Source: Spirochaetota bacterium
GTDB taxonomy: Bacteria; Spirochaetota; Spirochaetia; SPDA01; JAJSAL01
Length of the DNA stretch: 64,000 nucleotides
Direction: 5' to 3'
NCBI GenBank assembly: GCA_024274705.1
Contig: JAJSAL010000041.1
Location: 1,684 to 65,683, forward strand
This document shows positions 4,064 through 24,815 of this stretch, in pieces. Position numbers and translations under genes: made by a program. Each line of letters opens with the position of its first letter. Within the stretch, counting starts at the first letter, position 1. The notes beneath the pieces were generated by a model that was not told the DNA's origin, made no database searches, and saw only the letters and a program-made list of their open reading frames with translations.

Positions 4064-4680
4064 TCGTGCCGAGAATACTGGGAATTTGCGGAAGCCCCAG
4101 GGGGAAATCAGGAACCGAGTATGCCCTTCGGAAAGCGCTTAAGGAAGTTGAAAAAACCGGGGTGGAAACAGAACTGATTACTTTGAGGGCGAAGGAGATG
4201 GGGTTCTGCATTCACTGTGACAAGTGCATCCGGGAGGAGAGCCGGAAGTGCCTGGTACATGATGACGACATGACGCTTATGTATGATCCGTTTTACTATG
4301 CCGACGGGTATATCATCGCCTGCCCGGTGTACAAGATGTCTGTAACCGGTCAGCTGTCGGTCTTCTTCGACCGTCTCCGTCCCATCTGGAACATGCTGAA
4401 AAAGGACCGGGCATTCTTCTACAATAAAATAGGCGGGGCCATTGCCGTAGGCGGATCAAGAAACGGCGGGCAGGAGACCACGATCGAACGGATACAGAAC
4501 TTCTACAACTCACTGGGAGTAACGATTGTCAACCTGGGAACTCCCGCGTTCGGCGGTGCTTCCCTGTGGAGCCACTCCGGATCATATGAAGGCCTCCTTA
4601 CGGATGAATCCGGCCTGGAAGATGCGAAGAGGGTGGGAGAAAGGGTGGCCCGGATGGTGTTGACCATAGCCCCGGTTTAA
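4060..4680 (+). CDS. Iron-sulfur flavoprotein (Isf / flavodoxin family)
   Basis: GSPR..GT, CIHCDKC..C, PVY and GGSRNGGQE motifs. Confidence 0.88.
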   Translation: MIVPRILGICGSPRGKSGTEYALRKALKEVEKTGVETELITLRAKEMGFCIHCDKCIREESRKCLVHDDDMTLMYDPFYYADGYIIACPVYKMSVTGQLSVFFDRLRPIWNMLKKDRAFFYNKIGGAIAVGGSRNGGQETTIERIQNFYNSLGVTIVNLGTPAFGGASLWSHSGSYEGLLTDESGLEDAKRVGERVARMVLTIAPV

Positions 4681-4811: not shown

Positions 4812-6065
4812 CTACTTCTTCCCCATAGCGGCGGGGCTAATATACGACGTCAAAGTTAATTCCCGTTGGATCACCACCTTGCCTTTGAGCATGACAACGG
4901 ATTTGAAACCCTGGTCGATGACCGCGCTGTACGGGTCGGGGGTATCTATGATAACCAGATCCGCCGAAGCTCCTTCCCGTAACCCGTAATCGTCTAAACC
5001 CATGGTAAGGGCGGGGTTACCGGTGATCATGGGGAGTGTTTCAAGAAATGCTTCCCTTGTTCCCGCCTGGAAAATCTGGGCTGCCAGCAGCGCTTCTTCA
5101 AGAAGATCGCCGTTGCCGTATGGCCGGAAGGGATCACGGATGTTGTCCGAGGCCAGGGAGATATTCACCCCGGCATCCAGGAACTCCCTGATACGGGTGG
5201 TCCCCCGTCTCCGGTTTACAGTGTCACCCCTTCCCATGAGATAGAGATTGCACGCAGGAAGGGTAACGATATTCAAGCCCGCATCCTTCACTTTCTTTAT
5301 AATCTCCGATGCCTTCTTCGCCGGAACCGCCGACAGGGAAGTACAGTGACCTGCTGTGACCCTCCCCTCCATTCCCTCTTTTATCGTCTTTTCCGCCAGG
5401 TATTCAAGGGCCGATGCGTCGGGATCATCACTCTCATCCACGTGCAGGTCCAGGGGTACAACGTAGTACTTTGCAAGATCGAATAGAGTATCGGTAAATA
5501 CTGCATGGTCCTCGCTCAGCGTCGGGCATCCGCCGAGACCGTCGGCCCCGGTTTTAAGGATTTTTTCGGTCCGTTCATACACATGGTCTCCCTTTTCGAG
5601 TCTTTTCACAGCCCCGGGGAACACGACAAGCTGCAGTGTGATCATCTCCTGAAAGAGCTTTTTCAATTCGAGGGAGGCGTTCCATATCCGCATTCCCGTG
5701 GAAGGCTGAATGGTGATGTGAGTCCGGATACCGGAAACCCCCTGACGGATGGACATCTCCACCATTTCGATACCACGCCGGAGAATATCTTCTTCATCCG
5801 CGGTTTCAAAATAACGGTCCATGTTTTCTATTGCTTCGTGAAGGGTCCCGGAAGTGTTGGGAACATGGCCGCTGGTTAATGATTTGTCCGTATGGGTATG
5901 CACGTCAACAAAGCCGGGAAAAATAGTTTTTCCCGCTGCGTCTATCGTCTTTCCGGCTGTTCCCCTTAAGGAGGGTCCTATCGCCGCTATCTTTCCACCC
6001 TCCACGGCGAGGTCCTGTACTCCTTTTTGAAAAAGGTGGCCGCCTTTTATAATATATTCATACAT
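4812..6065 (-). CDS. Cytosine/creatinine deaminase-like amidohydrolase (CodA family)
   Basis: PGFVDVHTHTDK, IRTH, DLHVDE, GHCTSL and SDNIRDPF motifs. Confidence 0.88.
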   Translation of the reverse strand: MYEYIIKGGHLFQKGVQDLAVEGGKIAAIGPSLRGTAGKTIDAAGKTIFPGFVDVHTHTDKSLTSGHVPNTSGTLHEAIENMDRYFETADEEDILRRGIEMVEMSIRQGVSGIRTHITIQPSTGMRIWNASLELKKLFQEMITLQLVVFPGAVKRLEKGDHVYERTEKILKTGADGLGGCPTLSEDHAVFTDTLFDLAKYYVVPLDLHVDESDDPDASALEYLAEKTIKEGMEGRVTAGHCTSLSAVPAKKASEIIKKVKDAGLNIVTLPACNLYLMGRGDTVNRRRGTTRIREFLDAGVNISLASDNIRDPFRPYGNGDLLEEALLAAQIFQAGTREAFLETLPMITGNPALTMGLDDYGLREGASADLVIIDTPDPYSAVIDQGFKSVVMLKGKVVIQRELTLTSYISPAAMGKK

Positions 6066-6102
6066 ATGAATCAACCTTTTATAATATGAATGTATATTTA
6101 TA

Positions 6103-6131
6103 TTGATTTATACTAAATCGTATGCTACAAT
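6103..6131 (+). promoter_or_regulatory. sigma70 promoter of the BMP operon with an overlapping inverted repeat
   Basis: TTGATT-17bp-TACAAT with TG extension; GATTTA-tac-TAAATC at 6105-6119. Confidence 0.55.
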
Positions 6132-6161
6132 ATTGTTACAAAAAAAACAAGGAGTTAGAGT

Positions 6162-7160
6162 ATGAAAAGGATTCTTGTCGTTCTCACGATTCTCCTGCTG
6201 GTTTCTTTTTCCCTCTTTGCAGGGGGACAGAAAGAGGACGGAAAGGGAGAGGACACCCTGAAAATCGCTGCATTGCTTCCGGGACCTATCAATGACGGCG
6301 GATGGAACACGCTGATGTACGCTTCTCTTAAACATCAGGAAGAGGTATTCGGTGCAGAAATTGCATACACCGAACGAACCCCTGCGTCGGATTATGAAGA
6401 GATATTCCGCGGATATGCCGAGAGCGGGTATGACATCATCTTCGGGCACGGGTTCGAGTTCGGCGATTCCGCCAAAAAGGTAGCTCCCGACTATCCCGAT
6501 GTTGTGTTTATTATCAACAGCACCAACATTGCCCAGGAGCCGAACGTCGGTTCGTTCCTCGTATACGACTTCCAGTGCGGTTTTGCCCAGGGGGCGATTG
6601 CAGCTATTGTTACCAAAAGTAATGTTGTCGGTTACATCGGCGGTATGGAAATTCCCCCTATCGTAAACCAGGGGAAGGGATTTCTCGCAGGAGCAAAGTA
6701 TGTCAATCCCGACATCAAGGCGAAATTTCTCCTCACCGGTGACTTTGCCGATATTGCAAAGGCAAAGGAGATGGCCAAATCACTTATTTCGGAGGGCGCG
6801 GATATTATTGTAGCCGATGCCGATGAAGCAAGCCACGGAGTTATCGAGGCTGTTGAAGAAGACGGCGGATGGGTCATCGGAAGCTCCGGCGATTTGTATG
6901 AAACCGTCCCGGAAGCCCGGCCTGTTGTGCTAACAAGTATTACCGAAGATATGCCTAAGGGTCATGAACTTGTGGTAAGTGATATTGTAAGCGGAACGTT
7001 TTCTCCCGGGAATTACCTGATCGGTTTCGGCGACGGAGCGGTCGATCTGGCTCCCCTGCGCGAAAGCGAAGACCACCTGACAAAGGAACAGGTAAAGAAA
7101 ATTAATGATATAATTGCGGGCCTTAAAGACGGTTCTATCGACGTTTCCAAGTACGAATAA
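6162..7160 (+). CDS. BMP-family (PnrA/TmpC-like) nucleoside-binding protein
   Basis: Signal peptide LFAGGQKE; PGPINDGGWN, GYDIIFGHGFEF and VGYIGG motifs. Confidence 0.88.
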   Translation: MKRILVVLTILLLVSFSLFAGGQKEDGKGEDTLKIAALLPGPINDGGWNTLMYASLKHQEEVFGAEIAYTERTPASDYEEIFRGYAESGYDIIFGHGFEFGDSAKKVAPDYPDVVFIINSTNIAQEPNVGSFLVYDFQCGFAQGAIAAIVTKSNVVGYIGGMEIPPIVNQGKGFLAGAKYVNPDIKAKFLLTGDFADIAKAKEMAKSLISEGADIIVADADEASHGVIEAVEEDGGWVIGSSGDLYETVPEARPVVLTSITEDMPKGHELVVSDIVSGTFSPGNYLIGFGDGAVDLAPLRESEDHLTKEQVKKINDIIAGLKDGSIDVSKYE

Positions 7161-7176
7161 TTTCTAACCTTAAGAC

Positions 7177-7228
7177 GGGAGGCGGGGTGTATCAGTGATA
7201 TCTGATCGCCCTGTCGCCCCTTTTTTTT
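7177..7228 (+). terminator. GC-rich stem-loop with U-tract after the binding-protein gene
   Basis: GGGAGGCGGGGTG..ATCAG/CTGAT..CGCCCTGTCGCCCC followed by T8. Confidence 0.6.
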
Positions 7229-7249
7229 AAGTCAATATCAGGAATATGT

Positions 7250-8326
7250 GTGATTAAGAATAAGCTTTTTTCAGGTGCTCATACACGGTATGAAAGAGTT
7301 GTCATCCAGGTGGCTTCCATCCTCGTCGCCTTTCTGTTAGGCGCCCTTGTAATAAAGATCATTGGTATATCTCCTCTGAAAGCGTACAGCGCACTTTTAA
7401 ACGGCGCTTTCGGCAGCCGGAACGCGATCGGGGAAACCATGGTGAAAATGACCCCGCTGATCCTTACCGGTTTGAGTTACGCCTTTGCCGCCCGGGCGGG
7501 GCTTATCAATATCGGTGCCGAAGGACAACTTTATATCGGTGGTATTATGGCTACGCTCATCGGTACGAATTTTCCGGGACTGCCCATGATCATCCACCTT
7601 CCCTTTGCGATTACGGGAGGGTTTATGGGCGGCGCCGCCTGGGGGATGCTCGTGGGATGGATGAAGGTAAGGTTCGGAGCAAACGAGATCATTACCACGG
7701 TAATGCTGAACTACATTGCCGTATTTCTTGTGAGTTTCCTGGTAACCGGTCCCATGAAATCACCGGTAGCGGATATGCCCGAAAGTCGTGGGATACTCGA
7801 TTCCGCCACGCTGGTACGGATCATTCCCGGGACAAGGCTGCACTTCGGTTTCCTCATCGCCGTGGGCGCGTTGATTTACTACTACTTTTTCATCTGGAAG
7901 ATGCGGCAGGGGTATGAGATCCGGGTGGTAGGACACAACATGGAGGCTGCCCGGGCCGCCGGTATGAAACCGGGGAAAACCATGCTCCTCGCCATGTTCC
8001 TCGCAGGCGGTATGGGAGGACTCGCGGGGGCCGTGGAAATACTTGCAATCCAGGGAAGACTCTTGCAGGCATTTTCTCCGGGATACGGCTTTGACGGAAT
8101 TGCCGTTGCCCTGGTGGGATTGAACAACCCCCTCGGTATCTTCCTCGGGGCAATGCTCTTCGGGTTCCTGAGAGCCGGAGGAAACAGGATGCAGATGCTT
8201 GCGAAAGTTCCCATCTCCGTTATCTATGTTATCCAGGGGCTGGTAATCGTTTTCGTCATTATCGGACAGAATGTTAAAGTGTTCGGGAAGAGGCCATTAC
8301 GTACGGCGGTAAAAGAGGTGACATGA
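7250..8326 (+). CDS. Nucleoside-type ABC permease
   Basis: GLINIGAEGQ and GYGFDGIAVA motifs. Confidence 0.9.
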   Translation: MIKNKLFSGAHTRYERVVIQVASILVAFLLGALVIKIIGISPLKAYSALLNGAFGSRNAIGETMVKMTPLILTGLSYAFAARAGLINIGAEGQLYIGGIMATLIGTNFPGLPMIIHLPFAITGGFMGGAAWGMLVGWMKVRFGANEIITTVMLNYIAVFLVSFLVTGPMKSPVADMPESRGILDSATLVRIIPGTRLHFGFLIAVGALIYYYFFIWKMRQGYEIRVVGHNMEAARAAGMKPGKTMLLAMFLAGGMGGLAGAVEILAIQGRLLQAFSPGYGFDGIAVALVGLNNPLGIFLGAMLFGFLRAGGNRMQMLAKVPISVIYVIQGLVIVFVIIGQNVKVFGKRPLRTAVKEVT

Positions 8327-8327
8327 C

Positions 8328-9263
8328 ATGGAAAAGGCAGTGGATTTTATTACGTATATTCTATCTACCGACTTACGTACAGCGGCTCCGATCCTCATTG
8401 CCGCCCTGGGACTGGTGCTCATGGAGAAAAGCGGAGTGGTCAATATCGGTTGTGAGGGGATGATGCTGATAGGTTCCTTTTCAGGGGTTTTTTTCGCCAG
8501 GCTCTTCGGCAGCCCCTGGATGGGGATGCTGTCTGCAGGAATCGTGGGAATGATCGTGGGTATTCTTTTCGCATATATCGTTGTTACACTTGGAGCGAAC
8601 CAGATCGTTACCGGTATAGCCTTTAATATTATCGCCCTTGGGTTGACTTCCACGTTGAACCGGCTGATCTACGGGGTCACGAGCCAGGCAGCCAGGGCAC
8701 CTGGTTTCGAGTACGTCTCTATTCCGCTTTTTAACAAAATCCCGGTTATCGGTGAAGCATTGTTCAGCCAGATGGTGCCGGTGTATCTCGCTTTGGGGTT
8801 AGTACCAATCATACAATGGTTTTTTATGAAGACCACCGTTGGTTTGAAAGTACGGTCGGTGGGTGAGCATCCCCGTGCGGCGGATACCGCTGGGATCGAT
8901 GTGTCCGCCGTCCGGTATGGGACCATTCTCGCAGGCTCATTCCTGATCGGAGCAGCCGGGTCATTTCTCTCCCTGGGGCTTTTAAGTCTTTTTACGGAAA
9001 ACATGGTAAGCGGCCGGGGATTTATCGCTTTGGCTGTAGTAATTTTCGGTAAATGGACTCCCTGGGGAATTCTCGGGGCCGCCCTGGTTTTCGGCTTAGG
9101 GGACGCGGTTCAAATCAAGATCCAGACAATCGGCAGTGCCGTACCGTATCAGTTTCTCATGATGGTTCCTTATATTCTGACAATTTTTGCGCTTGCGGGA
9201 TTCGTCGGACGCTCCCAGGCTCCTGCCGCATCAGGAAAGCCCTTCAGAAGCGGGAAAACATAG
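8328..9263 (+). CDS. Nucleoside-type ABC permease, second subunit
   Basis: EKSGVVNIGCEG, GEHP.AA, GRGFIALA and PY motifs. Confidence 0.9.
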   Translation: MEKAVDFITYILSTDLRTAAPILIAALGLVLMEKSGVVNIGCEGMMLIGSFSGVFFARLFGSPWMGMLSAGIVGMIVGILFAYIVVTLGANQIVTGIAFNIIALGLTSTLNRLIYGVTSQAARAPGFEYVSIPLFNKIPVIGEALFSQMVPVYLALGLVPIIQWFFMKTTVGLKVRSVGEHPRAADTAGIDVSAVRYGTILAGSFLIGAAGSFLSLGLLSLFTENMVSGRGFIALAVVIFGKWTPWGILGAALVFGLGDAVQIKIQTIGSAVPYQFLMMVPYILTIFALAGFVGRSQAPAASGKPFRSGKT

Positions 9264-9274
9264 GGAGGATAAGC

Positions 9275-10810
9275 ATGGGTGACATCCTTGAGATGAAAGG
9301 GATAACCAAGATCTTTTTCGGCGGTGTAACAGCGAATGAGGGCATCAATTTCACCCTGAGAAAAGGGGAAGTTCACTCCATCCTTGGAGAAAACGGCGCC
9401 GGCAAAAGCACCCTCATGAATATACTCTCCGGGGTCCTCCATCCTACCGCAGGGGAGATTTTTCTGAATAATGAGAAAGTGGTGTTTGAATCCGCTAAAG
9501 ATGCGATTTATAAAGGAATTGGAATGGTATATCAGCATTTTATGCTGGTACCGAGGCTTACCGTCGCGGAAAATATCATACTGGGAATCCGCCGCGATCG
9601 TGAACCCCTCCTTCAGATTAAAAAGGCGGCAGAGGAGATTACCGCTTTTGCCGGGCAGTACGGAATGGAGATAGATCCTTTCGTTCCGGTATGGCAGTTG
9701 AGTGTGGGGCAGGAACAACGGGTTGAAATTATAAAAGTGCTGTTCCGCGGGGCGAAGATTCTCATTCTCGATGAGCCTACCGCGGTGTTAACGCTGAAGG
9801 AGACGGAAGAGCTGTTTAAAATGATCCGGACTTTTATTGAACAGGATTTCTCCGTTGTCTTCATAAGTCATAAAATAGACGAGGTTATCAGGATCAGTGA
9901 CAGGATCTCCATCCTGCGGCGGAGCCGTTTGGTGGAGACCCTGGACAACAGGGAGCTTTCAAAGAAAAAGCTTGCGAGGCTTATGGTCGGTAGGGATGTC
10001 TCCTTCTCCATCGATAAGAAGGCATGCTGCGCCGGTGATGCAGTCCTTACACTCGAACATGTTTACGCGAAAAATAATAAAGGCCTGGAAGCCCTAAAGG
10101 ATGTCAGTATAACAGTCAGGGAAGGGGAGATATTAGGCATTGCGGGTGTGGATGGGAACGGGCAGAGCGAACTCCTGGAAGTGATAACCGGCTTGAGGAG
10201 GGTCGTGGAAGGAAGAATAACTCTCAATCGCGAAGATATTGCGGGAAAGGACCCCCGTTCCATCCTTGAAATGGGACTGGCCCATATCCCTGAAGACAGA
10301 CATGCCAGGGGATTGGTGCTCGATCTTAATATCAAAGAGAATTTCATATCCAACGATTATTATATCCCTCCTCATTCGAAGAGGAACTGGATAAACTGGC
10401 CTTTTATCCGGAAACACACCCGTGAAAATGTGAAGCGCTTTGATGTGAGGACATCATCGATCGATGTGCCCGTATCCGGTCTTTCCGGTGGGAATCAGCA
10501 AAAACTGATTCTTGCCCGGGAACTGCATAGTGAACCGGTTATCATAGCAGCCATGCACGCAGCCAGGGGGTTGGATGTGGGAGCGGTCGAGTATATTCAT
10601 AAACGGATTATAGAAGCGAGAGATAGAGGAACCGCAATTCTCTATATCTCGACGGAACTGGAAGAGCTTATCAATATCTCCGACAGGCTAGCCGTCATGT
10701 GCCGCGGTGAAATAATGGGTGTAGTTGACCCCAGGGTGGCAACCATCGAAGAGATCGGATTGATGATGGCAGGTTATAAACACGAACAAACAGCCGGGCA
10801 ACAGAGATAA
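9275..10810 (+). CDS. Two-domain ABC ATPase (CUT2/nucleoside)
   Basis: GENGAGKST, LDEPT and LSGGNQQK motifs; GGGAGG RBS before ATG 9275. Confidence 0.92.
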   Translation: MGDILEMKGITKIFFGGVTANEGINFTLRKGEVHSILGENGAGKSTLMNILSGVLHPTAGEIFLNNEKVVFESAKDAIYKGIGMVYQHFMLVPRLTVAENIILGIRRDREPLLQIKKAAEEITAFAGQYGMEIDPFVPVWQLSVGQEQRVEIIKVLFRGAKILILDEPTAVLTLKETEELFKMIRTFIEQDFSVVFISHKIDEVIRISDRISILRRSRLVETLDNRELSKKKLARLMVGRDVSFSIDKKACCAGDAVLTLEHVYAKNNKGLEALKDVSITVREGEILGIAGVDGNGQSELLEVITGLRRVVEGRITLNREDIAGKDPRSILEMGLAHIPEDRHARGLVLDLNIKENFISNDYYIPPHSKRNWINWPFIRKHTRENVKRFDVRTSSIDVPVSGLSGGNQQKLILARELHSEPVIIAAMHAARGLDVGAVEYIHKRIIEARDRGTAILYISTELEELINISDRLAVMCRGEIMGVVDPRVATIEEIGLMMAGYKHEQTAGQQR

Positions 10811-10822
10811 TCGCCGCGGGGT

Positions 10823-11560
10823 ATGAAGGAAGTGATGAACCCGAGAAGAAAAAAGATTCATAAATACCAGATCATCAAGAAGCATCTCCAGGATATGATC
10901 GGCCGCATGAGACCAGGACACAACAAGCTGGATACCGAGGAGATCATAGCTGCAAAGATGGGTGCCAGCAAGGCAACGGTCCGGCAGGCGATAACAGAGC
11001 TGATTGCCGGTGATTTAATTACCAGGGTCCAGGGGAAGGGCGTTTTCGGCAGGCCCATGGTAAGCCGGCTGAAGATGCGTATCCACAAAATGACCGATTT
11101 TTTATCACTTCTTGTGGAGCAGGGGTATCGTGTGTCGGTACTGCAGGGAAAAGCAGAGGTTCGTTCCCCCTCGGCCTGCATGATCAAACGGGTACCCGGG
11201 TATGCAGGTGAGGATGTGTATGCGTATGTCAGAACGTATTATGCAGACGAAGCACCGGTCATTCTGTGCAGGGTGGAAGTCCCCATGTCCCGGGTAGCAC
11301 ACTCCTTTGATTCAAATGTTCCGAATCTTAATTTCAACGATGATCTTAAGGAGCTCTGCGGAATTTCATTCACCTATGCGGTTTCATGGATCCGGGCTTC
11401 TCTCGATAAACAGGGAGAAGAGCTGTTTCAGGTAGAAAAAAACACCCCCTTTGTCACCTGGGACGAGGTTTTTCTCGATATTCATGATCAGCAGATATGT
11501 TACAATGAAATTCTGTTCCACCCCCATTTAATCGACATGTCGATAATTTCCTATTTCTAA
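10823..11560 (+). CDS. GntR/HutC-family regulator with UTRA domain
   Basis: L..E..IA.KMGASKATVRQAI..L...LI.R.QGKG.F winged HTH; paralog of 13733. Confidence 0.8.
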   Translation: MKEVMNPRRKKIHKYQIIKKHLQDMIGRMRPGHNKLDTEEIIAAKMGASKATVRQAITELIAGDLITRVQGKGVFGRPMVSRLKMRIHKMTDFLSLLVEQGYRVSVLQGKAEVRSPSACMIKRVPGYAGEDVYAYVRTYYADEAPVILCRVEVPMSRVAHSFDSNVPNLNFNDDLKELCGISFTYAVSWIRASLDKQGEELFQVEKNTPFVTWDEVFLDIHDQQICYNEILFHPHLIDMSIISYF

Positions 11561-11572
11561 GTGGAAGGATAC

Positions 11573-12967: not shown

Positions 12968-13009
12968 CAAACACGGACCCGGAAGATTCCGGTGTATAAG
13001 AGGTGTGGT

Positions 13010-13621
13010 ATGGCAAGAATTCTGGGCGTGAGCAGCAGCCCGCGAAAAAAATCAGGGACAGAGTACATGGTAAAACTCGCCCTGGAGGAAGCGGAAAAAA
13101 TGGGGATGGATACAGAGCTGGTTTCGCTGAGAAACCGGAAGATCAACCCCTGTATCCACTGCGACAAGTGTATCCGGGAGAATATGGACAGGTGTGCAAT
13201 CTGGGAAGACGGTATGACCCCCCTGTACGATGTGTTCTACCAGGCTGACGGGTACGTGTTCGGTTCGCCTGTGTATGAGATGGGCGTGAACAGCCAGATG
13301 GCTGCATTTTACGACCGTTTCCGAGCGGTGTGGATGGTATTACAGAAAGATTACAAATTTTTCTACAACAAGGTAGGAGGTGCCCTGGCAGTTGGCGGGG
13401 CACGTTCCGGTGGGCAGGAATTTACCATTCTGCGAATTCATAACTTCTATTCCACCATGGGGATCACCATCGCTACCATGGGGGCTCCTCAGTACAACGG
13501 AGCCACCGGGTGGAGCAATGGAGGAACCTTTGAGGCCCTCCTGGAAGACGAAACAGGGTTGAACCAGGCAAGAATGCTGGGGGAGAGGGTAGCCCTGGCT
13601 GTAAAAAAAATGTCGGGCTGA
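13010..13621 (+). CDS. Iron-sulfur flavoprotein (Isf family), paralog of 4060
   Basis: SSPR..SGT, CIHCDKC..C, SPVY and GGARSGGQE motifs. Confidence 0.88.
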   Translation: MARILGVSSSPRKKSGTEYMVKLALEEAEKMGMDTELVSLRNRKINPCIHCDKCIRENMDRCAIWEDGMTPLYDVFYQADGYVFGSPVYEMGVNSQMAAFYDRFRAVWMVLQKDYKFFYNKVGGALAVGGARSGGQEFTILRIHNFYSTMGITIATMGAPQYNGATGWSNGGTFEALLEDETGLNQARMLGERVALAVKKMSG

Positions 13622-13694
13622 TATCCGGCGACAGAATTCCGGTGGTGTACGAAGGCGATGAGCCGGACTTCCCGGTCTTCCCCTCCTGTTTTTC

Positions 13695-13723
13695 TTGACA
13701 GGACCGGCACTATCCAATACCAT
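13695..13723 (+). promoter_or_regulatory. sigma70 promoter giving a near-leaderless gntR mRNA
   Basis: TTGACA-17bp-TACCAT ending 9 nt before ATG 13733. Confidence 0.6.
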
Positions 13724-13732
13724 TTGAGAAGT

Positions 13733-14482
13733 ATGATGAGCAGACCTATAAAATCCCAGACCTCTCCTCTCTATGTCATGGCAAAAGAAGCCATCATGGA
13801 GCTGGTCAATGAAGACTCCTTTCCCGGCGGCAAACTGCCTTCGGAAGCAGTGCTGTCGGAGTCTTTAGGCATCAGCAGGACCACCATACGTGAAGCCCTT
13901 ATTACCCTCCACAGGGAGGGGATTATTACAAAGCAGCACGGTCTGGGAAACCTGATTCACAGAAGTACCCTGGGGACAAAGATGCAGATCGACCGGTTTT
14001 CCGATTTTAAGGCCCTCCTGAAAGATGGGGGATACGAGGCCGATGTTGCCAGGTCCGAACAGGAGTGGGTCAGGAACCTGGAACCTTTCGGTCTGGAAGA
14101 TCCTGAGCAGACTGAAAATGAGCGGTATCTGTACGTAGAAAGCATCTACAGCGCGGATGCAAAGGCTGCGATACTTTCCCAGAACTTCATCAAAGAATCG
14201 GTGCTCCGAAAAGATATCGGGGATAAAAAAAACGTACCGGAAAGCAGTTTTGTGGAACTCCTTAACCTGTTTTCAAAAGAGGAAGTGGCTAATACCATTA
14301 TTGCTTTCAAACCGTCTGTCGTGGATAACGTGGTTTCGGAAAAGCTCTGTCTTGGCAAGGGCCTGCCGGTAATGCAGTGGCAGGAAACCTCCTACAGTGT
14401 GTTTGACCGTGTCATCTGCCTGGGCAAGATCACCTTCCACCCGGAATTGGTCAATCTCACCCTGCTTCGAAAATGGAAATGA
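13733..14482 (+). CDS. GntR/HutC-family regulator with UTRA domain
   Basis: PLY, LPSE..LS..LGISRTTIREAL..L..EG and HG.G motifs. Confidence 0.88.
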   Translation: MMSRPIKSQTSPLYVMAKEAIMELVNEDSFPGGKLPSEAVLSESLGISRTTIREALITLHREGIITKQHGLGNLIHRSTLGTKMQIDRFSDFKALLKDGGYEADVARSEQEWVRNLEPFGLEDPEQTENERYLYVESIYSADAKAAILSQNFIKESVLRKDIGDKKNVPESSFVELLNLFSKEEVANTIIAFKPSVVDNVVSEKLCLGKGLPVMQWQETSYSVFDRVICLGKITFHPELVNLTLLRKWK

Positions 14483-14772
14483 AGCACCGCCAGGTATCGG
14501 TGACAGTAAAGTATTTCAATCTTATCAGGGACCTGACAGGCTGCAGTAACGAAACGGTAACACTTCATGAGGGGTGCACCCTTGGAGATCTTCTCCTCCG
14601 GCTTAAAGAAACCTATGGTGAACAATTCACCCGGTATCTGTATACGGACGAGGGTGAACTCCAATCTTATGTAAGGGTCGTCCGGAGCGGTCGCTTCGGG
14701 CAGGAAGATGCGGATTCTGTTCTGTCCGATGATGATGAGGTGTACCTTTTTGTCGCCACTTCCGGGGGGTGA
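14479..14772 (+). CDS. MoaD/ThiS-family ubiquitin-like sulfur carrier
   Basis: V.VKYF..IRD.TG N-terminus and C-terminal SGG; ATGA overlap with gntR. Confidence 0.85.
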   Translation: MKHRQVSVTVKYFNLIRDLTGCSNETVTLHEGCTLGDLLLRLKETYGEQFTRYLYTDEGELQSYVRVVRSGRFGQEDADSVLSDDDEVYLFVATSGG

Positions 14773-14875
14773 TGCGGGATTTTTCCCTTGACAACGGGCA
14801 GGACGTTCGCCGTTATGTCTGCAAGAAAAACGTATCGGGAACATCATGAAACAATAATCTAAGGGTGGAAAGTTT

Positions 14876-16582
14876 ATGAACATACTACGAATCGACTGCA
14901 ACAACAAAAGTTTTCAGTATGAAGGACTGCCGGAGTATTTTACTGCAGTCGCAGGCAGGGGATTCATCGCCAGGATACTCCGGGACGAGGTTCCTGCAGA
15001 GTGTTATCCCCTGGGGCCGGAGAATAAGCTGATTATCTGTAACGGTCCCCTGGCAGGTGTGGGAATTTCCAGCGCCGGACGGCTTTCTATCGGGGGGAAA
15101 AGTCCCTTAACCGGCGGCGTCAAAGAGAGCAACAGCGGAGGGACGGCGGCGGACGCCCTGGCACAGCTGGGCTTACGGGGGATGATCCTGGAAAATCAGC
15201 TTAACGGGAACAGCTGGTATCTGCTTAAAATAGAAGAGGACCATGTCGAGTTTATCGATGCCTGCGATTACACAGGACTCGGCAACTACGATCTCCGAAA
15301 AAAACTGGTGCAGGATTTCGGTGAAGGGTACAGCACCATCACCATCGGACCATCCGGGGAAAAACAGTATTTGAATTCATCAATCGCAATAAATGACAGG
15401 TTCGGACGTCCCGGAAGGGTCGCTGCCCGGGGCGGCCTGGGCGCCCTCATGGGTTCGAAACGGATCAAGGCGATTCTGATCAGGGAAAAAGGCAGCTATA
15501 AGCCCGCCGGGGCGGAATCAGCGGCCTTCAAAGATGCACGGCGGGAGTTTCACCGGATCGTGAAAGAGAGCGAACGGATCAAGGTACTCCGGGAGTACGG
15601 TACGGCATCAACCGTCATGGATGCCCAGCGGCTGGGTGCCCTTCCTACCTGCAATTTTACCCGGGGCCAGTTCGAGGATGCAGAAAAGATATCAGGGGAA
15701 ACCCTCCATGACCTTATCCTTTCCCGGGGAGGGGATGGGACCAACAGCGAGTCCTGCATGGGCGTGTGCATCATCCAGTGTTCAAACCTTTATGTGGACG
15801 CTGGAGGAAAAGAGGTGGTAGGACCCGTGGAGTACGAGACTATAAGTCTCTTAGGATCTAATCTCGGTATCGGGGACCTGGATGTCATCGCTCATCTTAA
15901 CTATCTCTGCAACGATTACGGCCTGGACACCATCGAAACCGGCGGAGCCCTGGGAGTGATGGCGGAAGCCGGACTCCTCCGGTTCGGTGAAGCCGGGGAT
16001 TTTATCAGAGCAGTACATGAAGTGCCTGAAGGAGGCTGGCTGGGACTCCTTATAGGTATGGGTACCGGTATTACGGCAAAAGTGCTGAATGTCCGCAGGG
16101 CCCCGGTGGTGAAGAACCAGTGCATGTCCGGGTATGATCCCAGGGGGGTAAAGGGGACAGGCGTCACCTATGCCACCTCCCCCATGGGAGCGGACCATAC
16201 CGCAGGCCTTACGGTGTACATGCCGGTGGACCATCACGACAAGAAGGACCAGGTGGAAACGTCCCGGAAGATGCAGGTAAGCCGGGCCTCTTACGATGTG
16301 CTCGGCTTGTGCGCATTCCTCCTGGCCGCTACTGCCATGCATGGCGATAAAGTAATCGCAATGCTGAACGGTCTGTACGGTCTCGACCTCCCGCCGGATT
16401 ATCTCGGGAGGATCGGGAATGAGACCATCCTGCTGGAAAAGAAGTTCAACCTGGCTGCCGGTTTCGATAAAAAGGATGACCGGATACCTGCATTTTTCAA
16501 AGAGGAAAAACTTCCCCCTTTCGATCTTCAATGGGATATCGATGATGCGGAAATGGATGTCATATTCGGAGGATCTGTATGA
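14876..16582 (+). CDS. Tungsten aldehyde:ferredoxin oxidoreductase (AOR family)
   Basis: KSPLTGG.KESNSGG, RGGLGA.MGSK.IKAI, CxxxCxxxC, EYET, DTIETG, GADH and GLC motifs. Confidence 0.92.
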   Translation: MNILRIDCNNKSFQYEGLPEYFTAVAGRGFIARILRDEVPAECYPLGPENKLIICNGPLAGVGISSAGRLSIGGKSPLTGGVKESNSGGTAADALAQLGLRGMILENQLNGNSWYLLKIEEDHVEFIDACDYTGLGNYDLRKKLVQDFGEGYSTITIGPSGEKQYLNSSIAINDRFGRPGRVAARGGLGALMGSKRIKAILIREKGSYKPAGAESAAFKDARREFHRIVKESERIKVLREYGTASTVMDAQRLGALPTCNFTRGQFEDAEKISGETLHDLILSRGGDGTNSESCMGVCIIQCSNLYVDAGGKEVVGPVEYETISLLGSNLGIGDLDVIAHLNYLCNDYGLDTIETGGALGVMAEAGLLRFGEAGDFIRAVHEVPEGGWLGLLIGMGTGITAKVLNVRRAPVVKNQCMSGYDPRGVKGTGVTYATSPMGADHTAGLTVYMPVDHHDKKDQVETSRKMQVSRASYDVLGLCAFLLAATAMHGDKVIAMLNGLYGLDLPPDYLGRIGNETILLEKKFNLAAGFDKKDDRIPAFFKEEKLPPFDLQWDIDDAEMDVIFGGSV

Positions 16583-17922
16583 TACATGATTTGCGCTCAT
16601 TCCTTAAGGTACTTAAAAGTAACGGGGAGCTTCTCGAAATAAAAAAGGAAGTTGACCTGAAACACGAAATAGGGTCAGTCATAGCTTCACTGGAGCGGAA
16701 AGGTGGGGAAGCAGCCTATTTCGCCAACGTAAAAGGACACCGCATTCATGTTACCGGGGGACTCCTTTCGGACCACCGGAAGATTGCGCTGGCACTGGGC
16801 TGTAAGGTGGAAGAGGTGTCGGACCGTGTGGAAGCAGCCCTGGCGTGTAAGGAAACGATAAAACCTGAAGAGGTGGAAAATCCGGCTTTTAAGGAAAATA
16901 TTCTCACCGGCGACCAAGTGGACCTGTCCACAATTCCTATTCCCATCCATGCTCCTGAGGACGGAGGTCCTTTTATCACTGCGGGAGTTACCATCTCCAG
17001 GGCCTTAGGCGGCGGCAGGCAGAACGTCTCCTTTCAGCGGATGCATATAAAAGAGAAAAACCGAACCGGGGTGATGATCAACGAATGGAGGCATCTGAAA
17101 GAATTCCTCGACAGGGCGGAATCGGAGCGGAAAAGCCTACCCATTGCCGTCGCCGTTGGAGTGGACCCGGTTATCATGATGGCTGCGGGTATCCGGACGG
17201 ACCTGGATGAACTTGAACTTGCGTGCCGGCTTCGGGGCAAACCCATAGAGGTATCCAGGTGCCACACCTCTGATCTGCTGGTGCCCGCTTTCGCGGAGTT
17301 CGTCATCGAAGGAGAGATCCTGGCGGGAGTGCGGGACGATGAAGGTCCCCTCGCGGAGTTCACCGGACATTACGGGCTTCTGTGGAAGAGCCCCGTGTTC
17401 CAGGTAAAAGCGGTATGCCACAGGAACAACCCTATCTGGCAGACCCTGAATGGAGCGTCTCACGAACACATCAACTTAGGGAACGTCCTTTCCCGGGAAC
17501 CTGTATTAAAAAAGTACACAACCTACGTGTCGAAAAACGTTAAGAACGTCCATATTCCTCCGTACGGTGCTGGATTCCTTGCCCTTATCTCCATGGACAA
17601 GAAGAACGAAGGGGAACCGAAAAACGCAGCAATGGCCGCCATGGTCTCCCATGTGAATATCAAGACTGTCGTAGTGCTGGATACCGATGTGGATATATAC
17701 AATCCCGCGGATGTGCTCTGGGCCCTGGCGAACAGGATCGATCCCAGGGAAGATGTATTTATCATCCCCAACGCCCAGGGGCACGAACTGGATCCGGCCA
17801 GCGATGAACGGGGAGTGCAGACGAAAATGGGTATCGACGCCACCCTCTGGGAAACGAAGAAGGACCTGAAAAAAGTTGTATATCCCTCGGTGGATTTAAG
17901 TCCCTACCGGGAAGAATCGTAA
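16579..17922 (+). CDS. UbiD-family prFMN-dependent (de)carboxylase
   Basis: DLRSFL, DGGPFIT, EFVIEGEI, EGPLAEFTGHY, D.DVDI, LDP and KMGIDAT motifs. Confidence 0.92.
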   Translation: MIHDLRSFLKVLKSNGELLEIKKEVDLKHEIGSVIASLERKGGEAAYFANVKGHRIHVTGGLLSDHRKIALALGCKVEEVSDRVEAALACKETIKPEEVENPAFKENILTGDQVDLSTIPIPIHAPEDGGPFITAGVTISRALGGGRQNVSFQRMHIKEKNRTGVMINEWRHLKEFLDRAESERKSLPIAVAVGVDPVIMMAAGIRTDLDELELACRLRGKPIEVSRCHTSDLLVPAFAEFVIEGEILAGVRDDEGPLAEFTGHYGLLWKSPVFQVKAVCHRNNPIWQTLNGASHEHINLGNVLSREPVLKKYTTYVSKNVKNVHIPPYGAGFLALISMDKKNEGEPKNAAMAAMVSHVNIKTVVVLDTDVDIYNPADVLWALANRIDPREDVFIIPNAQGHELDPASDERGVQTKMGIDATLWETKKDLKKVVYPSVDLSPYREES

Positions 17923-17932
17923 GGGAGGAACT

Positions 17933-19096
17933 ATGAAAGGATCAATTACAACATTCGGAATGCCTACGGAAATCATTTCAGGACCAGGGGCTCATAACAG
18001 GATTCCGGAATTTTTAGTCCCTGGGAAAAACACTCTCCTGGTAACAGACAAGGGCCTCGCAGATTCGGATATCGTACTAAAAGTAACATCTGTCTTAAAC
18101 GGCGCCGGTTTCCCGGTGAAGGTCGCGAGCGACATCACACCGAACCCGGACGAAGAGACAGTTAACCGGCTCACCGCTTATTTGAAGGAAAACAGTATCT
18201 TCCAGGTTGTTGCCCTGGGAGGAGGGAGTCCCCTTGATGCCGCTAAAGCGGCTTGTGCCATGGTTACCAATGAAGGACCGTTAGAAGACTACCAGTGGAA
18301 TAATAAACCTTTTACCAAGCCTCCGCTTCTTTTGATTGCAGTACCCACAACTGCGGGAACAGGGAGCGAGGTAACGGGAGTTGCGGTTATCACCAGCAGA
18401 AATGCGAAAAAGGGGATCAAAAAGAGAGAGATCTTCCCTGAAATCGCGGTTATCGATCCGGAGCTGATGGTCTCCCTGCCCGGGTTTCTGACAGCCACAA
18501 CCGGTATGGATGCCCTGACCCATGCGGTGGAGGCATATGTCGGGAAAAACACACATCCCATAACTGATAGCCTGGCAGTGTCGGCGATTCGTCTCATAGG
18601 CGGTAATCTCCGTAAGGTGGTAGAAAATGGATCGGATCTACAGGCCAGGGAAAACATGGCTATGGCAAGTACCCTGGCAGGTATTGCCATGGATCAGGCC
18701 GGGCTGGGGATCGTTCATTCTCTCTCCGGGCCGGTATGTTCCTTCATGCATCTTGCCCACGGTTTGGCAAATGCCGTGCTTCTTCCCTTCGGGATGGAGT
18801 ATAACCTTTCGGCCCGGTATAAGAGGTTTGCCGTAATCGCGGAACTCCTGGGTGGTGATACCGGTGGAATGAAGGAAGAAGATGCAGCTAAGCTTTCGCT
18901 AAAGCTGGTTCACCGGCTCCTTGACGACATAGGGCTTTCCGGGGAGCTGGAAAAGGTCCGCCAAGCCTTTAAAGAAAGGAAAGACCTGCATGTGTTCGGT
19001 GAGAGTGCTGCCGATATGTTTCTCATCAGGAACAATCCAAGGCCTGCTTCGGCGGAAGAGTGTACTGAACTATTCAGCATTATTGCCGGAGGATGA
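17933..19096 (+). CDS. Iron-containing alcohol dehydrogenase
   Basis: GGGSPLDAAK, PTTAGTGSE, DALTHAVE and H..HG.ANA motifs. Confidence 0.92.
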   Translation: MKGSITTFGMPTEIISGPGAHNRIPEFLVPGKNTLLVTDKGLADSDIVLKVTSVLNGAGFPVKVASDITPNPDEETVNRLTAYLKENSIFQVVALGGGSPLDAAKAACAMVTNEGPLEDYQWNNKPFTKPPLLLIAVPTTAGTGSEVTGVAVITSRNAKKGIKKREIFPEIAVIDPELMVSLPGFLTATTGMDALTHAVEAYVGKNTHPITDSLAVSAIRLIGGNLRKVVENGSDLQARENMAMASTLAGIAMDQAGLGIVHSLSGPVCSFMHLAHGLANAVLLPFGMEYNLSARYKRFAVIAELLGGDTGGMKEEDAAKLSLKLVHRLLDDIGLSGELEKVRQAFKERKDLHVFGESAADMFLIRNNPRPASAEECTELFSIIAGG

Positions 19097-19102
19097 GCTG
19101 AC

Positions 19103-19681
19103 ATGGGAAGAGTTGTTATCGTCGGCATAACAGGTGCGTCAGGAGCGGTATACGGAATCCGCCTGGCAGAGGTGCTAAAGGATACCCCTGGTATCGAGGT
19201 ACACCTGGTCTTAAGTGAATGGGCTAAGGAGACCATACGGATAGAGACGGACTACGTACCGGAACACATTCTTGCCATGGCCCACGCCTGTTATGACAAC
19301 CAGGACATGGCCGCTGCCATTTCCAGCGGCTCTTTCCCGGCGGAAGGGATGATCATAGTGCCTGCCAGCATGAAAACAGTGGCTGGAATCGCATGCGGAT
19401 TTTCCTCCAACCTCATCATCCGTGCCGCCGATGTTTCAATTAAGGAACAACGGAAGGTTATCATCGTTCCACGGGAAACCCCTTTAAGCGCCATCCACCT
19501 GGAAAACCTCCTCAAGCTCTCCCGTCTGGGGGTGTCGGTGCTTCCGGCGATCCCCGGTTTCTACACCCGTCCGAAGACCATAGAAGACTTGGTGGACCAC
19601 ACAGTCGGCAAAATCCTGGATCAGTTCGGCATCGAACACAACCTTATAAAACGGTGGGGAGATGAAACGAAAGGAACCTGA
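19103..19681 (+). CDS. ubiX: Flavin prenyltransferase
   Basis: VGITGASG, ISSGS, PASMKT, RAADV..KE.R and PRETP motifs. Confidence 0.93.
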   Translation: MGRVVIVGITGASGAVYGIRLAEVLKDTPGIEVHLVLSEWAKETIRIETDYVPEHILAMAHACYDNQDMAAAISSGSFPAEGMIIVPASMKTVAGIACGFSSNLIIRAADVSIKEQRKVIIVPRETPLSAIHLENLLKLSRLGVSVLPAIPGFYTRPKTIEDLVDHTVGKILDQFGIEHNLIKRWGDETKGT

Positions 19682-20066
19682 AAGATGGGACGTACCTGTT
19701 CTAGAGGCCGGAGAGGGACGCTGCCGTATCCAGGCCAGGATCCTCCCCATGGGAGACCACCTGCTGGTGGCTGTAACCGGGGGTGAAGCCCACATAGGTG
19801 CTGCAGCCCTGGCTGAACCCTATACCAGCCGGAAAGGACCGGGTAATACCGGCGTATCACTTTCTGTTCTCACCCGGACCACTCACAAGGAGGACGCAAT
19901 CGCCCGGGAAATGGCTTTCGGCTTGGCTTCCGCCGGGAAGGTCCCGGTCCTGGTGTGCTGCGGTATTCATGTCGATGACATTACACCGGTTGAAGTAGAG
20001 GAAATAAATCGTAATGCGGACACCCTTCTGGAAAAGATTACCGCGGCGTTGAACAGCAGACCGTAA
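19662..20066 (+). CDS. LpdD-like prenylated-flavin chaperone
   Basis: MG..LLV.VTGG..HIGA, HKED and GIHVDDIT motifs; adjacent to ubiX. Confidence 0.72.
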   Translation: MKRKEPERWDVPVLEAGEGRCRIQARILPMGDHLLVAVTGGEAHIGAAALAEPYTSRKGPGNTGVSLSVLTRTTHKEDAIAREMAFGLASAGKVPVLVCCGIHVDDITPVEVEEINRNADTLLEKITAALNSRP

Positions 20067-20544: not shown

Positions 20545-20548
20545 TCAG

Positions 20549-22237: not shown

Positions 22238-22248
22238 CCGAACTATGA

Positions 22249-24721: not shown

Positions 24722-24748
24722 TGGCATATCCTTTTTGTTCAAACAGAT

Positions 24749-24783: not shown

Positions 24784-24815
24784 ATGTACTGATTTCTTTT
24801 GTGTTTACGTTTTTG

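Follow-up and report, generated by a model that had tools for sequence, protein, structure and literature searches.

An island of genes around a UbiD decarboxylase in a Spirochaetota genome: a candidate oxygen-free route for removing a one-carbon side chain from an N-heterocyclic base

The stretch of DNA considered here, 64,000 nucleotides of contig JAJSAL010000041.1 of a Spirochaetota bacterium (hereafter the window), harbors at 4.8-20.1 kb an array of genes surrounding a UbiD-family decarboxylase and at 30.5-42.4 kb a module of ring-degradation enzymes. From sequence comparisons, it is evenly balanced whether the two together serve the catabolism of an imported N-heterocyclic base that is amino-substituted and bears a one-carbon side chain, and it is rather probable that one pathway acts on an N-heterocycle through an alcohol-aldehyde-acid-decarboxylation logic. 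That the ring is a pteridine is proposed tentatively, at somewhat less than an even chance.

In the proposed scheme the base would be imported by an ATP-binding cassette (ABC) system with a BMP-family binding protein, the hydroxymethyl group on the ring would be converted to the aldehyde by an iron-containing alcohol dehydrogenase (Fe-ADH), and the aldehyde to the ring carboxylate by an aldehyde:ferredoxin oxidoreductase (AOR) with a MoaD-like partner, the electrons passing to ferredoxin. UbiD would release the carboxyl group as CO2, with UbiX making its cofactor and LpdD handing it over, and two amidohydrolases, AH1 and a CodA-like enzyme, would strip the exocyclic amino group. The bare oxo-heterocycle would be hydroxylated, reduced and opened by the second module (xanthine dehydrogenase, XDH, with PreA-like, SsnA-like, YgeY and carbamoyltransferase enzymes), as a variant of the reductive 2,8-dioxopurine pathway yielding carbamoyl phosphate. 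The pteridine version would run from 6-hydroxymethylpterin through 6-formylpterin and pterin-6-carboxylate to pterin and lumazine, its substrates coming from the breakdown of folate, neopterin and related cofactors. What the comparisons show are the genes and their order, their families, the placement of the clades and the conservation of the neighborhoods; what we infer are all the substrates, whether deamination or decarboxylation comes first, and what an FMN reductase encoded in the array does.

Organization of the gene array

Gene calls combined a listing of open reading frames (ORFs) with Pfam and NCBIfam scans at family cut-offs. A plus-strand array extends from 6162 to 20066, its widest gap being the 103 nt between the MoaD and AOR genes. 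It opens with the BMP-family substrate-binding lipoprotein of the importer (6162-7160; PF02608, 179 bits), two BPD_transp_2 permeases (7250-8326 and 8328-9263) and an ATPase with two ABC_tran domains (about 9275-10810; the ORF begins at 9053, with the likely start Met at 9275), and continues with a GntR/HutC-type regulator with a UTRA domain (10823-11560), the permeases, the ATPase and both GntR proteins of the array being assigned by Pfam. Next come AH1, a TRZ/ATZ/MtaD-type amidohydrolase and presumed deaminase (11561-12967; Amidohydro_1, 237 bits), an FMN_red flavoprotein with a Cys4 motif (12992-13621, likely start 13010; PF03358, 88 bits), the second GntR regulator (13658-14482, likely start 13733) and the MoaD/ThiS-like small protein (14473-14772; TIGR01687, 52.9 against a cut-off of 49.5). 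The remainder of the array encodes AOR, of the tungsten/molybdenum pterin family (14876-16582; AFOR_N 183 bits, AFOR_C 227 bits), UbiD, of a decarboxylase family dependent on prenylated FMN (prFMN) (16579-17922; PF20695, PF01977 and PF20696; TIGR00148, 357 against 244.85), Fe-ADH (17933-19096; Fe-ADH and ADH_Fe_C domains), the flavin prenyltransferase UbiX (19103-19681; TIGR00421, 259 against 108.9) and an LpdD-type small protein (19662-20066; PF21758, 111 bits against 27). Divergent from the BMP gene, on the minus strand, lies the gene for the CodA-like (cytosine/pterin-deaminase-like) amidohydrolase (4812-6074; Pfam Amidohydro_3/1, NCBIfam scores below cut-off).

The AOR and UbiD genes overlap by 4 nt and those of UbiX and LpdD by 20 nt, while gaps of 10 and 6 nt separate UbiD from Fe-ADH and Fe-ADH from UbiX; the second GntR gene overlaps that of MoaD by 10 nt. 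These junctions bear out an earlier note on this DNA, which had described them as tight or overlapping from AOR to LpdD, and each gene that it named was recovered in its place from ORFs, Pfam and NCBIfam. Both GntR genes and the FMN reductase belong to the array as well and were absent from that gene list. Directly past LpdD, where G+C is 0.40 (20-21 kb), a ParE-type toxin gene (20471-20809, plus strand) is likely part of a toxin-antitoxin pair at the array edge.

Genes for a proposed alcohol and aldehyde oxidation beside UbiD

In a large protein collection 866 proteins matched the window UbiD at E <= 1e-60, the best 120 of which showed 87% to 58% identity and often carried the JGI label '2,5-furandicarboxylate decarboxylase 1', and when one genome for each species was scanned by pattern, 285 stretches encoding a relative were obtained. 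Seventy-nine of these 285 loci were retrieved with flanks of up to 10 kb, from Spirochaetota, Halanaerobiales, Oscillospiraceae, Negativicutes, Fusobacteriota, Moorella, Desulfitobacteriia and others. Neighbors were mapped by ORF clustering, Pfam/NCBIfam naming and tblastn with several representatives per family, and were counted within 6 kb of 81 UbiD sequences (rows), the window itself (L001) being left out; counts over 78 rows refer to the clade described below and exclude L003_1, L004_1 and L068_1, which fall outside it.

An Fe-ADH gene was found near 25 of the 81 rows, AOR near 19, an NAD-dependent aldehyde dehydrogenase (ALDH) near 11 and MoaD near seven. Within the clade, 20 of the 25 rows with an Fe-ADH also had an aldehyde oxidizer (AOR in 12, ALDH in 11, both in three), as compared with only six of the 53 rows without Fe-ADH (Fisher p = 4e-9, a value inflated by the relatedness of the rows). 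Two unrelated aldehyde-oxidizing families thus occupy the same slot beside Fe-ADH and UbiD, and such an interchange is what a chain from alcohol through aldehyde and acid to decarboxylation predicts. The sequence R-CH2OH to R-CHO to R-COOH to R-H on an N-heterocycle, put forward in the earlier note, therefore fits the comparative data.

Among solved structures the window AOR best matched 9mqx (215 bits) and 1aor (179 bits). Its orthologues, with 62-69% identity, adjoin UbiD in L002, L005-L007, L009 and L012, and MoaD homologues occur in L002, L005, L006, L020, L031, L039, L081 and L083. The Fe-ADH reached no NCBIfam cut-off, its best score being for lactaldehyde reductase (287 bits, below 523).

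The UbiD clade

The window UbiD carries all three domains of the family (UbiD_N, UbiD and UbiD_C) above the Pfam cut-offs. Residues R154, E255, E260, N149, H172 and E213, which by Fdc1 numbering we take to be catalytic or metal-binding, are invariant in 15 clade sequences, and R154, E255 and E260 align with HmfF, a 2,5-furandicarboxylate decarboxylase. An ionic E(D)-R-E network is named for UbiD enzymes in PMC8988006, which also gives structure 6h6v as HmfF; 6h6v is the closest solved relative of the window UbiD (296 bits over the full length, about 45% identity).

A quick maximum-likelihood tree of 89 rows, with support from the Shimodaira-Hasegawa approximate likelihood-ratio test (SH-aLRT) and UbiD matches below 1150 nt excluded, placed the window UbiD in a 78-row clade (support 100) apart from the HmfF clade (four rows, 100) and from a three-row clade (96) composed of two other rows and an orthologue of XCDC, the xanthine-8-carboxylate decarboxylase (a UbiD) of a pterin/lumazine cluster; no branching order among the three groups is given by the tree. 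The HmfF references were UbiDs of annotated plasmids, namely three proteobacterial loci and a Geobacillus kaustophilus plasmid; the Sinorhizobium meliloti pSymB UbiD stood in for XCDC LA1_0150 by cluster context, and the plasmid UbiDs H32 (dihydroorotase-linked), H76 (HutC-linked) and H80 (U32-linked, ubiquinone type) served as outgroups only. The three proteobacterial loci hold UbiX, a Mo-enzyme trio, an AMP-ligase and an enoyl-CoA hydratase, with a GMC oxidase in two of them, a content that we presume to be that of the published hmf cluster. The 78-row clade is without a characterized member.

In the alignment, both the window UbiD and the clade consensus show the motifs NEWRH, EFTGHY and PPYgsGF, as compared with LLP-RH, EFPKYY and GGxCRYH in the HmfF clade, the last being present in its four rows and in 6h6v; the XCDC orthologue differs from both clades at these stretches. 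The window UbiD has Gly at the position of the Arg of the HmfF CRYH motif, which we assume to bind the distal (second) carboxylate of 2,5-furandicarboxylate; functional roles of H296, R304 and R331 of HmfF are likewise our assumption.

The earlier note had made its reading depend on the UbiD not clustering with phenolic-acid decarboxylases, and it does not, standing instead beside the HmfF and XCDC lineages. A phenolic-acid decarboxylase identity was accordingly discarded, the VdcC structure 7ae4 scoring only 154 bits and the NCBIfam VdcC model 311 against a cut-off of 650. Two further placements were rejected: PtHmfF as a member of the 78-row clade, as 6h6v is matched at 560 bits by the Geobacillus plasmid UbiD and at 296 bits by the window UbiD, and XCDC orthology, the window UbiD being 29.6% identical to the S. 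meliloti orthologue, in a different clade and with no DHLI/GTPase homologue in any locus.

A close orthologue (71%) was found in only one of 40 relatives of the window genome, so the gene is patchily distributed. Two or more UbiDs in differing contexts were seen in the genomes behind L017, L018/L065, L028/L082 and L040/L047, and further multi-UbiD genomes are those behind L042/L060, L044/L068, L052/L063 and L073, which suggests more than one decarboxylation step or substrate; one copy of L068 groups with XCDC, outside the 78-row clade. Directly 3' of UbiD-UbiX, a trio of radical SAM, LigB/Memo-like and AMMECR1 genes was observed in L033, L034, L040, L048 and L049, joined by UPF0047 in four of the five. 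On a plasmid of Ensifer canadensis (L087, 6322-10966), a long-branch UbiD/UbiX pair, preceded by genes for a Zn-dependent hydrolase and a dihydroorotase-family protein and accompanied by a major facilitator superfamily transporter, looks like another uncharacterized N-heterocycle decarboxylation cluster.

Importer, amidohydrolases and conserved neighborhoods

The BMP protein has as its best solved relatives AtzT (6pi5, 115 bits), 7x0r and 3s99 (107 bits), as compared with only 57 bits for TmpC/PnrA (2fqw). By these scores it is closest to the base-binding BMPs and not to the nucleoside receptor TmpC/PnrA; it reached 123 bits with the NCBIfam 'B6 ABC' model (cut-off 400) and shares 36% identity with the BMP protein encoded next to the pterin cluster of S. 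meliloti. AH1 reached no cut-off of a named NCBIfam deaminase (376 < 609, 366 < 522, 319 < 532, 173 < 375), the family in question being that of MtaD and the 5'-deoxyadenosine, guanine and 8-oxoguanine deaminases, and is therefore placed at superfamily level only, as a presumed deaminase. In the amidohydrolase tree it belongs to an 11-row clade (99) within a 28-row clade (99). For 17 of the 28 rows a UbiD of the 78-row clade is found no more than 1 kb away, and this proximity ties the importer/deaminase half of the array to the UbiD clade beyond local adjacency. A second, SsnA-like amidohydrolase clade (14 rows, 100) includes the window gene at 32249-33601.

Across the 81 rows, partner-type amidohydrolases were counted near 40, UbiX near 36, ABC ATPases and GntR regulators near 19 each, BMP and YgeY-family M20 proteins near 18 each, and the XDH large subunit near 16. 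Lower counts were obtained for RibD_C-like 'pyrimidine reductases' (11), LacI (10), CodA-like proteins and carbamoyltransferases (OTCase; seven each), NMT1/THI5-like binding proteins (six), FolB and dihydroorotate (DHO) dehydrogenases with Fer4 (five each), and fused reductases resembling dihydropyrimidine dehydrogenase (DPD; four). At least one N-heterocycle marker (amidohydrolase, BMP, XDH, YgeY, FolB and others) was present in 64 of the 78 clade rows, and the 14 rows without one include several short loci. A typical order in gut Oscillospiraceae is BMP-ATPase-permease-permease-RibD_C-like-FMN_red-amidohydrolase-UbiD-UbiX (L023, L032, L041, L078 and L080), and the 16-row subclade of the window UbiD shows recurrent BMP, AH1-type amidohydrolase, FolB, XDH, DHO-dehydrogenase-like or hydantoinase genes.

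The earlier note had asked for linkage of the transporter to the AOR-UbiD block in related genomes, and this was borne out in part. BMP lies in the same array as UbiD in L007 and L012 (65-67% identity), with AH1 also in L007; no BMP was found in the available flanks of L005 and L006. The latter two loci belong to the observations that weigh against a single pathway on an N-heterocycle: the available flanks of L005 (78%), whose gene set is GntR-MoaD-AOR-UbiD-UbiX-Fe-ADH with an FMN_red nearby, also lack the partner amidohydrolase, and in L006 (71%) an amidohydrolase adjoins AOR. A promoter-like site (TTGACA-17-TACCAT, 13695-13723) lies just 5' of the likely start of the second GntR gene, and other such sites lie ahead of the BMP gene at 6027-6131; in the scan overall, promoter-like sites were not above chance (15 vs. 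16.6 expected from shuffles), and terminators likewise. With this site and the second GntR at 13.7 kb, the array may consist of two transcription units, one with the importer and deaminase genes and one with the AOR-UbiD block, each under its own regulation; GntR genes stand within the AOR/Fe-ADH/UbiX/UbiD arrays of L005, L006, L007, L009 and L012 as well. Moreover, UbiD-UbiX-Fe-ADH occurs with no N-heterocycle gene within 6 kb in the Oscillospiraceae loci L022, L025, L027 and L038, three of which also carry ALDH, and the Geobacillus plasmid UbiD has ALDH and Fe-ADH upstream, so that this sub-module suits furans just as well. Because the rows come from related genomes, both the counts and the Fisher test make them look more independent than they are, and some of the marker families, M20 and OTCase among them, are generic.

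An alternative that would accommodate much of this, and that we hold to be unlikely, is that the importer of a purine base and a salvage deaminase (6162-13621) lie beside an unrelated, GntR-controlled oxidation and decarboxylation module (13733-20066), the latter acting on a non-nitrogen aromatic alcohol or aldehyde, e.g., 5-hydroxymethylfurfural, via 2,5-furandicarboxylate to furoate, as an anaerobic counterpart of hmf. The promoter-like site with its regulator, the gaps in L005 and L006, the loci L022, L025 and L027 holding only UbiD-UbiX-Fe-ADH-ALDH, the Geobacillus region, the JGI label on the orthologues and the position of HmfF as the closest solved and characterized relative all agree with it. 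Nevertheless, it would assign a furan substrate to a UbiD outside the HmfF clade and devoid of the GGxCRYH motif, in an array with none of the furoyl-CoA genes (AMP-ligase, Mo-dehydrogenase and hydratase) of L084-L086 and L092, and it does not agree with AH1 being a clade-specific partner of these UbiDs nor with the recurrence of N-heterocycle genes in the 16-row subclade.

Identity of the heterocycle

The genes accompanying the clade narrow the choice of ring. FolB adjoins UbiD in L018, L039, L057, L062, L064 and L065, with two to four tandem matches in L057 and L065, and a copy in L065 passes the folB equivalog cut-off (TIGR00525, 77 > 72.15). In the gut Firmicute Marasmitruncus (L064, 7204-8256) a homologue (269 bits) of the methenyl-tetrahydromethanopterin cyclohydrolase (MCH) family lies between the CodA-like gene and FMN_red/FolB/UbiD, and another member of its ORF-clustering family (f77), putatively an MCH as well, is found beside a BMP importer in L011, a metagenome-assembled genome of Sediminispirochaeta. 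As an observation in its own right, the f77 genes of both loci sit inside UbiD/BMP clusters, far from a C1-methanopterin pathway context. RibD_C/'pyrimidine reductase'-like genes resembling dihydrofolate reductase (DHFR) occur in 11 rows and give a further pteridine lead. FolB, the MCH homologue, the DHFR-like reductases and XDH near UbiDs point to pteridines or purine-like rings, of which pteridines fit best, explaining most parts.

The CodA-like protein bears on the same question. Its best NCBIfam score, for 'cytosine deaminase', is 271 bits, below the cut-off of 438, and it resembles Escherichia coli CodA (30%, 186 bits) less than it does the CDA-like protein encoded with the pterin/lumazine genes of S. 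meliloti (39%, 236 bits), with which it shares an altered 'SDNIxDPFxPxG' stretch and the loss of the Gln of the E. coli CodA 'FPQEG'. The best solved match is 4r7w, labeled 'cytosine deaminase' (194 bits) and presumably a 5-methylcytosine deaminase.

These comparisons, with the FolB, MCH, DHFR-like and XDH neighbors, do not specifically favor the 5-hydroxymethyl-cytosine/uracil substrate suggested by the earlier note. A 5-substituted pyrimidine, either 5-hydroxymethyl-uracil/cytosine passing through the 5-formyl and 5-carboxy compounds to uracil or the thiamine pyrimidine (hydroxymethylpyrimidine, HMP), followed by a reductive pyrimidine route, is to our judgment very unlikely. It would be in keeping with the presence of a CodA-like gene and its match to 4r7w, with the PreA/DHO-dehydrogenase-like, dihydropyrimidinase-type and carbamoyl-cleaving enzymes near many UbiDs and with the NMT1/THI5-like binding proteins flanking UbiD in six rows, but CodA-like genes stand beside only seven of the 81 rows, the protein itself leans to the pterin-cluster enzyme, and FolB, the MCH homologue, the XDH trios and the SsnA-like enzymes would be left unexplained.

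The XDH, SsnA-like, YgeY, carbamoyltransferase and DPD-like genes flanking many clade UbiDs, and a BMP whose best solved relatives are of the base-binding type, would also suit a purine-derived carboxylate, such as xanthine-8-carboxylate, 4-amino- or 4-ureido-5-imidazolecarboxylate (clostridial purine fermentation) or 7-carboxy-7-deazaguanine, with Fe-ADH and AOR serving other ends, e.g., side-chain aldehydes or redox balance. In L019, L020, L045 and L056 UbiD adjoins an SsnA-like amidohydrolase, with XDH subunits directly after in L019 and L020, further downstream in L056, and the large subunit upstream in L045, an order that recalls LuDH-DHLI-XCDC (PMC12391406). For the steps between xanthine and formiminoglycine, the 2012 Clostridium acidurici genome paper (PMC3519856) could identify no genes. 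We regard this explanation as quite improbable, because it gives no account of Fe-ADH pairing with AOR or ALDH beside UbiD, nor of FolB and MCH, the identity to the XCDC orthologue is only 29.6-36% across separate clades, and UbiD has 0 mentions in the accessible text of both 2025 preprints on anaerobic uric acid degradation.

The pteridine, although preferred, has its own difficulties. FolB was not found in the window genome (0 matches in an assembly 96.6% complete with 7.7% contamination), whose organism may be without its own folate synthesis, no RibD_C-like gene was found in the island, and no homologue of DHLI, the isomerase of the pterin pathway, in any locus. FolB and MCH are confined to a minority of loci, the window UbiD is distant from the XCDC orthologue (only 29.6% identity), and in PMC12391406 the assignment of the S. 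meliloti deaminase itself draws solely on analogy with Arad_3529.

Cofactor supply and the FMN reductase

A flavin prenyltransferase for the window UbiD is thus encoded in the array, as the UbiX gene at 19103-19681. The FMN_red protein carries a C-x2-C-x2-C-x7-C motif (CIHCDKCIRENMDRC), which we take to be of the iron-sulfur flavoprotein type. Its sole match among solved structures is 7d38 'Cd1' (40 bits), and homologues lie within 6 kb of 35 of the 81 UbiD rows. An identity as a PhdC-type maturase was rejected, PhdC being HpaC-like according to PMC13040415 and the window protein belonging to PF03358. The reductase may act either in electron transfer (from ferredoxin to flavin, or giving FMNH2 for UbiX) or in O2-free maturation of prFMN, and as a near-constant partner, of iron-sulfur type in the window copy, it is a candidate for anaerobic prFMN handling. 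The LpdD-type protein belongs to PF21758, the LpdD fold family, for which a prFMNH2 chaperone role is described in PMC10865409. It gave no match among the sequences of solved structures at E <= 0.01, and no homologue was found in the six-frame ORFs of the 83 loci L001-L083.

Ring-degradation module and other genes of the window

The second module (30532-42408, plus strand) begins with an HTH-cupin regulator at 30.5 kb (Pfam), followed by a YgeY-family hydrolase (31086-32282; NCBIfam YgeY, 437 > 321), the SsnA-like amidohydrolase (32249-33601; SsnA, 265 < 444), a PreA/DHO-dehydrogenase-like protein with Fer4 (33583-34689; below the NCBIfam cut-off) and the XDH large subunit (34686-36989; 484 < 994 and 464 < 780). 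Two ORFs of 285 and 159 amino acids (37007-37864 and 37861-38340) would be the FAD and 2Fe-2S subunits of XDH by size and position only, and are followed by a carbamoyltransferase (38399-39388; YgeW, 215 < 453) and two pyridoxal phosphate (PLP) fold-type II enzymes (39703-42408; below the NCBIfam cut-offs). The module matches, at the level of enzyme families and mostly below equivalog cut-offs, the 2,8-dioxopurine or reductive uric acid pathway; its families also flank UbiD in L030, L053, L056, L058, L064 and L067. Its presence in the same window makes it a plausible onward route for a decarboxylated, deaminated ring.

Other genes surround the island. At 54-2082 (plus strand) two BPD_transp_2 permeases are the last genes of another ABC system of BMP type; after them come a 181-amino-acid ORF with no Pfam match, a non-pyrrolysine MttB-family methyltransferase (2573-4063, plus strand; 204 bits) and a second FMN_red gene (4060-4680, plus strand). 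The MttB-family enzyme may demethylate a methylated base or quaternary amine feeding the island, and in Acididesulfobacillus (L056) MttB-family genes are located directly upstream of UbiD. Between the array and the module, a minus-strand operon (21056-29528) encodes an amidohydrolase, a creatininase-family hydrolase, an SBP_bac_1 ABC importer, a Zn-ADH, a DhnA-type class I aldolase and an FGGY kinase, and may handle a polyol or sugar side chain; genes of its kinase, aldolase and ADH families were also seen in the vicinity of UbiD in L008, L015, L016, L050, L052 and L057. Among sequencing runs none with RNA was listed, and one DNA run labeled marine sediment metagenome, which holds a 0.23 share of the words, is no evidence of habitat.

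Comparison with known systems

The closest described system is pterin/lumazine cluster I of Cupriavidus sp. LA-1, which according to Doi, Maeda and Takaya (2025; PMC12391406) combines a deaminase, a xanthine oxidoreductase (XOR) and UbiD/UbiX. The S. meliloti pSymB cluster reproduces its content (two amidohydrolases, UbiD, UbiX, a nucleobase symporter, a GTPase, an XDH trio and GntR) and continues into the CDA-like amidohydrolase and a BMP ABC importer. The window shares with these clusters an amidohydrolase-type deaminase (PDA or CDA-like), UbiD/UbiX, an XOR-family hydroxylase, GntR-type regulation, nucleobase-type importers (BMP ABC in S. meliloti) and, in the proposed scheme, a product entering purine-type ring breakdown. 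The Cupriavidus-type system is instead aerobic and occurs in Proteobacteria and Actinomycetota. There the carboxylate is formed as the ring contracts, through the amidohydrolase_2 isomerase DHLI and a GTPase, neither with a homologue in the loci examined; the system comprises no Fe-ADH, AOR, LpdD or iron-sulfur FMN reductase, and its XCDC, judged by the S. meliloti orthologue, is 29.6% identical to the window UbiD and belongs to another clade.

HmfF/HmfG and the hmf clusters have in common with the window the UbiD length, the UbiX partner and, in the proposed pathway, the oxidation of an alcohol or aldehyde to a heteroaromatic acid that is then decarboxylated. HmfF is separate by clade and by motifs at three conserved stretches, and hmf loci carry furoyl-CoA ligase, Mo-dehydrogenase, hydratase and GMC oxidase, with no BMP importer or deaminases; unlike them, the window uses a ferredoxin-linked AOR. 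The 2,8-dioxopurine or reductive uric acid pathway (XdhD, YgfK, SsnA, HyuA, YgeY, YgeW and YgeX; bioRxiv 2025.04.24.650524 and 2025.05.19.654654) resembles the 30.5-42.4 kb module in its YgeY-family hydrolase, SsnA-like enzyme, XDH, DHO-dehydrogenase-type flavin/Fe-S reductase, carbamoyltransferase and PLP enzymes; the window reductase is however PreA-like rather than YgfK, the SsnA-like, XDH and carbamoyltransferase proteins stay below equivalog cut-offs, and no UbiD, Fe-ADH or AOR is included in the pathway as described in the accessible text of the preprints. As in LpdBCD/VdcBCD (PMC10865409), UbiD, UbiX and an LpdD-family protein are encoded together, but the window UbiD scores only 154 bits to 7ae4 and LpdD was not found beside other clade UbiDs.

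By analogy, the proposed pathway would work as the known UbiD heteroaromatic pathways do (hmf; pterin/lumazine), and it differs from them in its distinct UbiD clade, ferredoxin-linked AOR, LpdD, iron-sulfur FMN reductase partner and reductive ring-degradation back end. The remark of the earlier note that it knew of no description of this gene set has to be narrowed in view of the related aerobic UbiD (XCDC) logic published in 2025 (PMC12391406) and of the Geobacillus UbiD region with ALDH and Fe-ADH. No paper was found in the literature linking UbiD with anaerobic pterin, purine or pyrimidine catabolism, the supplementary cluster lists of PMC12391406 being outside the coverage, nor with aminoimidazole or purine fermentation.

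Implications

Pterin breakdown received a genetic basis only in 2025, and in aerobic soil bacteria only, no anaerobic route having been found in print. The most far-reaching reading, which we put forward as possible though doubtful, is that the island belongs to the first gene set for O2-free catabolism of pteridines (folate, neopterin and possibly methanopterin pterins), spread over several hundred anaerobic species including gut Oscillospiraceae. Here BMP might import 6-hydroxymethyl-, 6-formyl- or 6-carboxypterin, Fe-ADH and a tungsten AOR (or NAD-ALDH) might make the 6-carboxylate, the UbiD clade might decarboxylate it and the two amidohydrolases might lead to lumazine, with the dioxopurine-like module giving ATP via carbamoyl phosphate and the iron-sulfur FMN reductase acting as O2-independent prFMN maturase or electron partner. 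If the substrate is 6-formylpterin or 6-carboxypterin, gut Pseudoflavonifractor, Marasmitruncus and Lachnoclostridium would consume folate breakdown products.

There is a demand for UbiD enzymes as catalysts of reversible (de)carboxylation, and the 78-row clade offers a set of them in which none has been characterized. The pairing of a ferredoxin-linked AOR with UbiD would amount to an O2-free removal of a hydroxymethyl group from a heteroaromatic ring, a chemistry otherwise drawn from oxygenase-dependent routes. The FMN reductase, if it is indeed a maturase or electron partner, would answer how strict anaerobes activate their UbiD enzymes.

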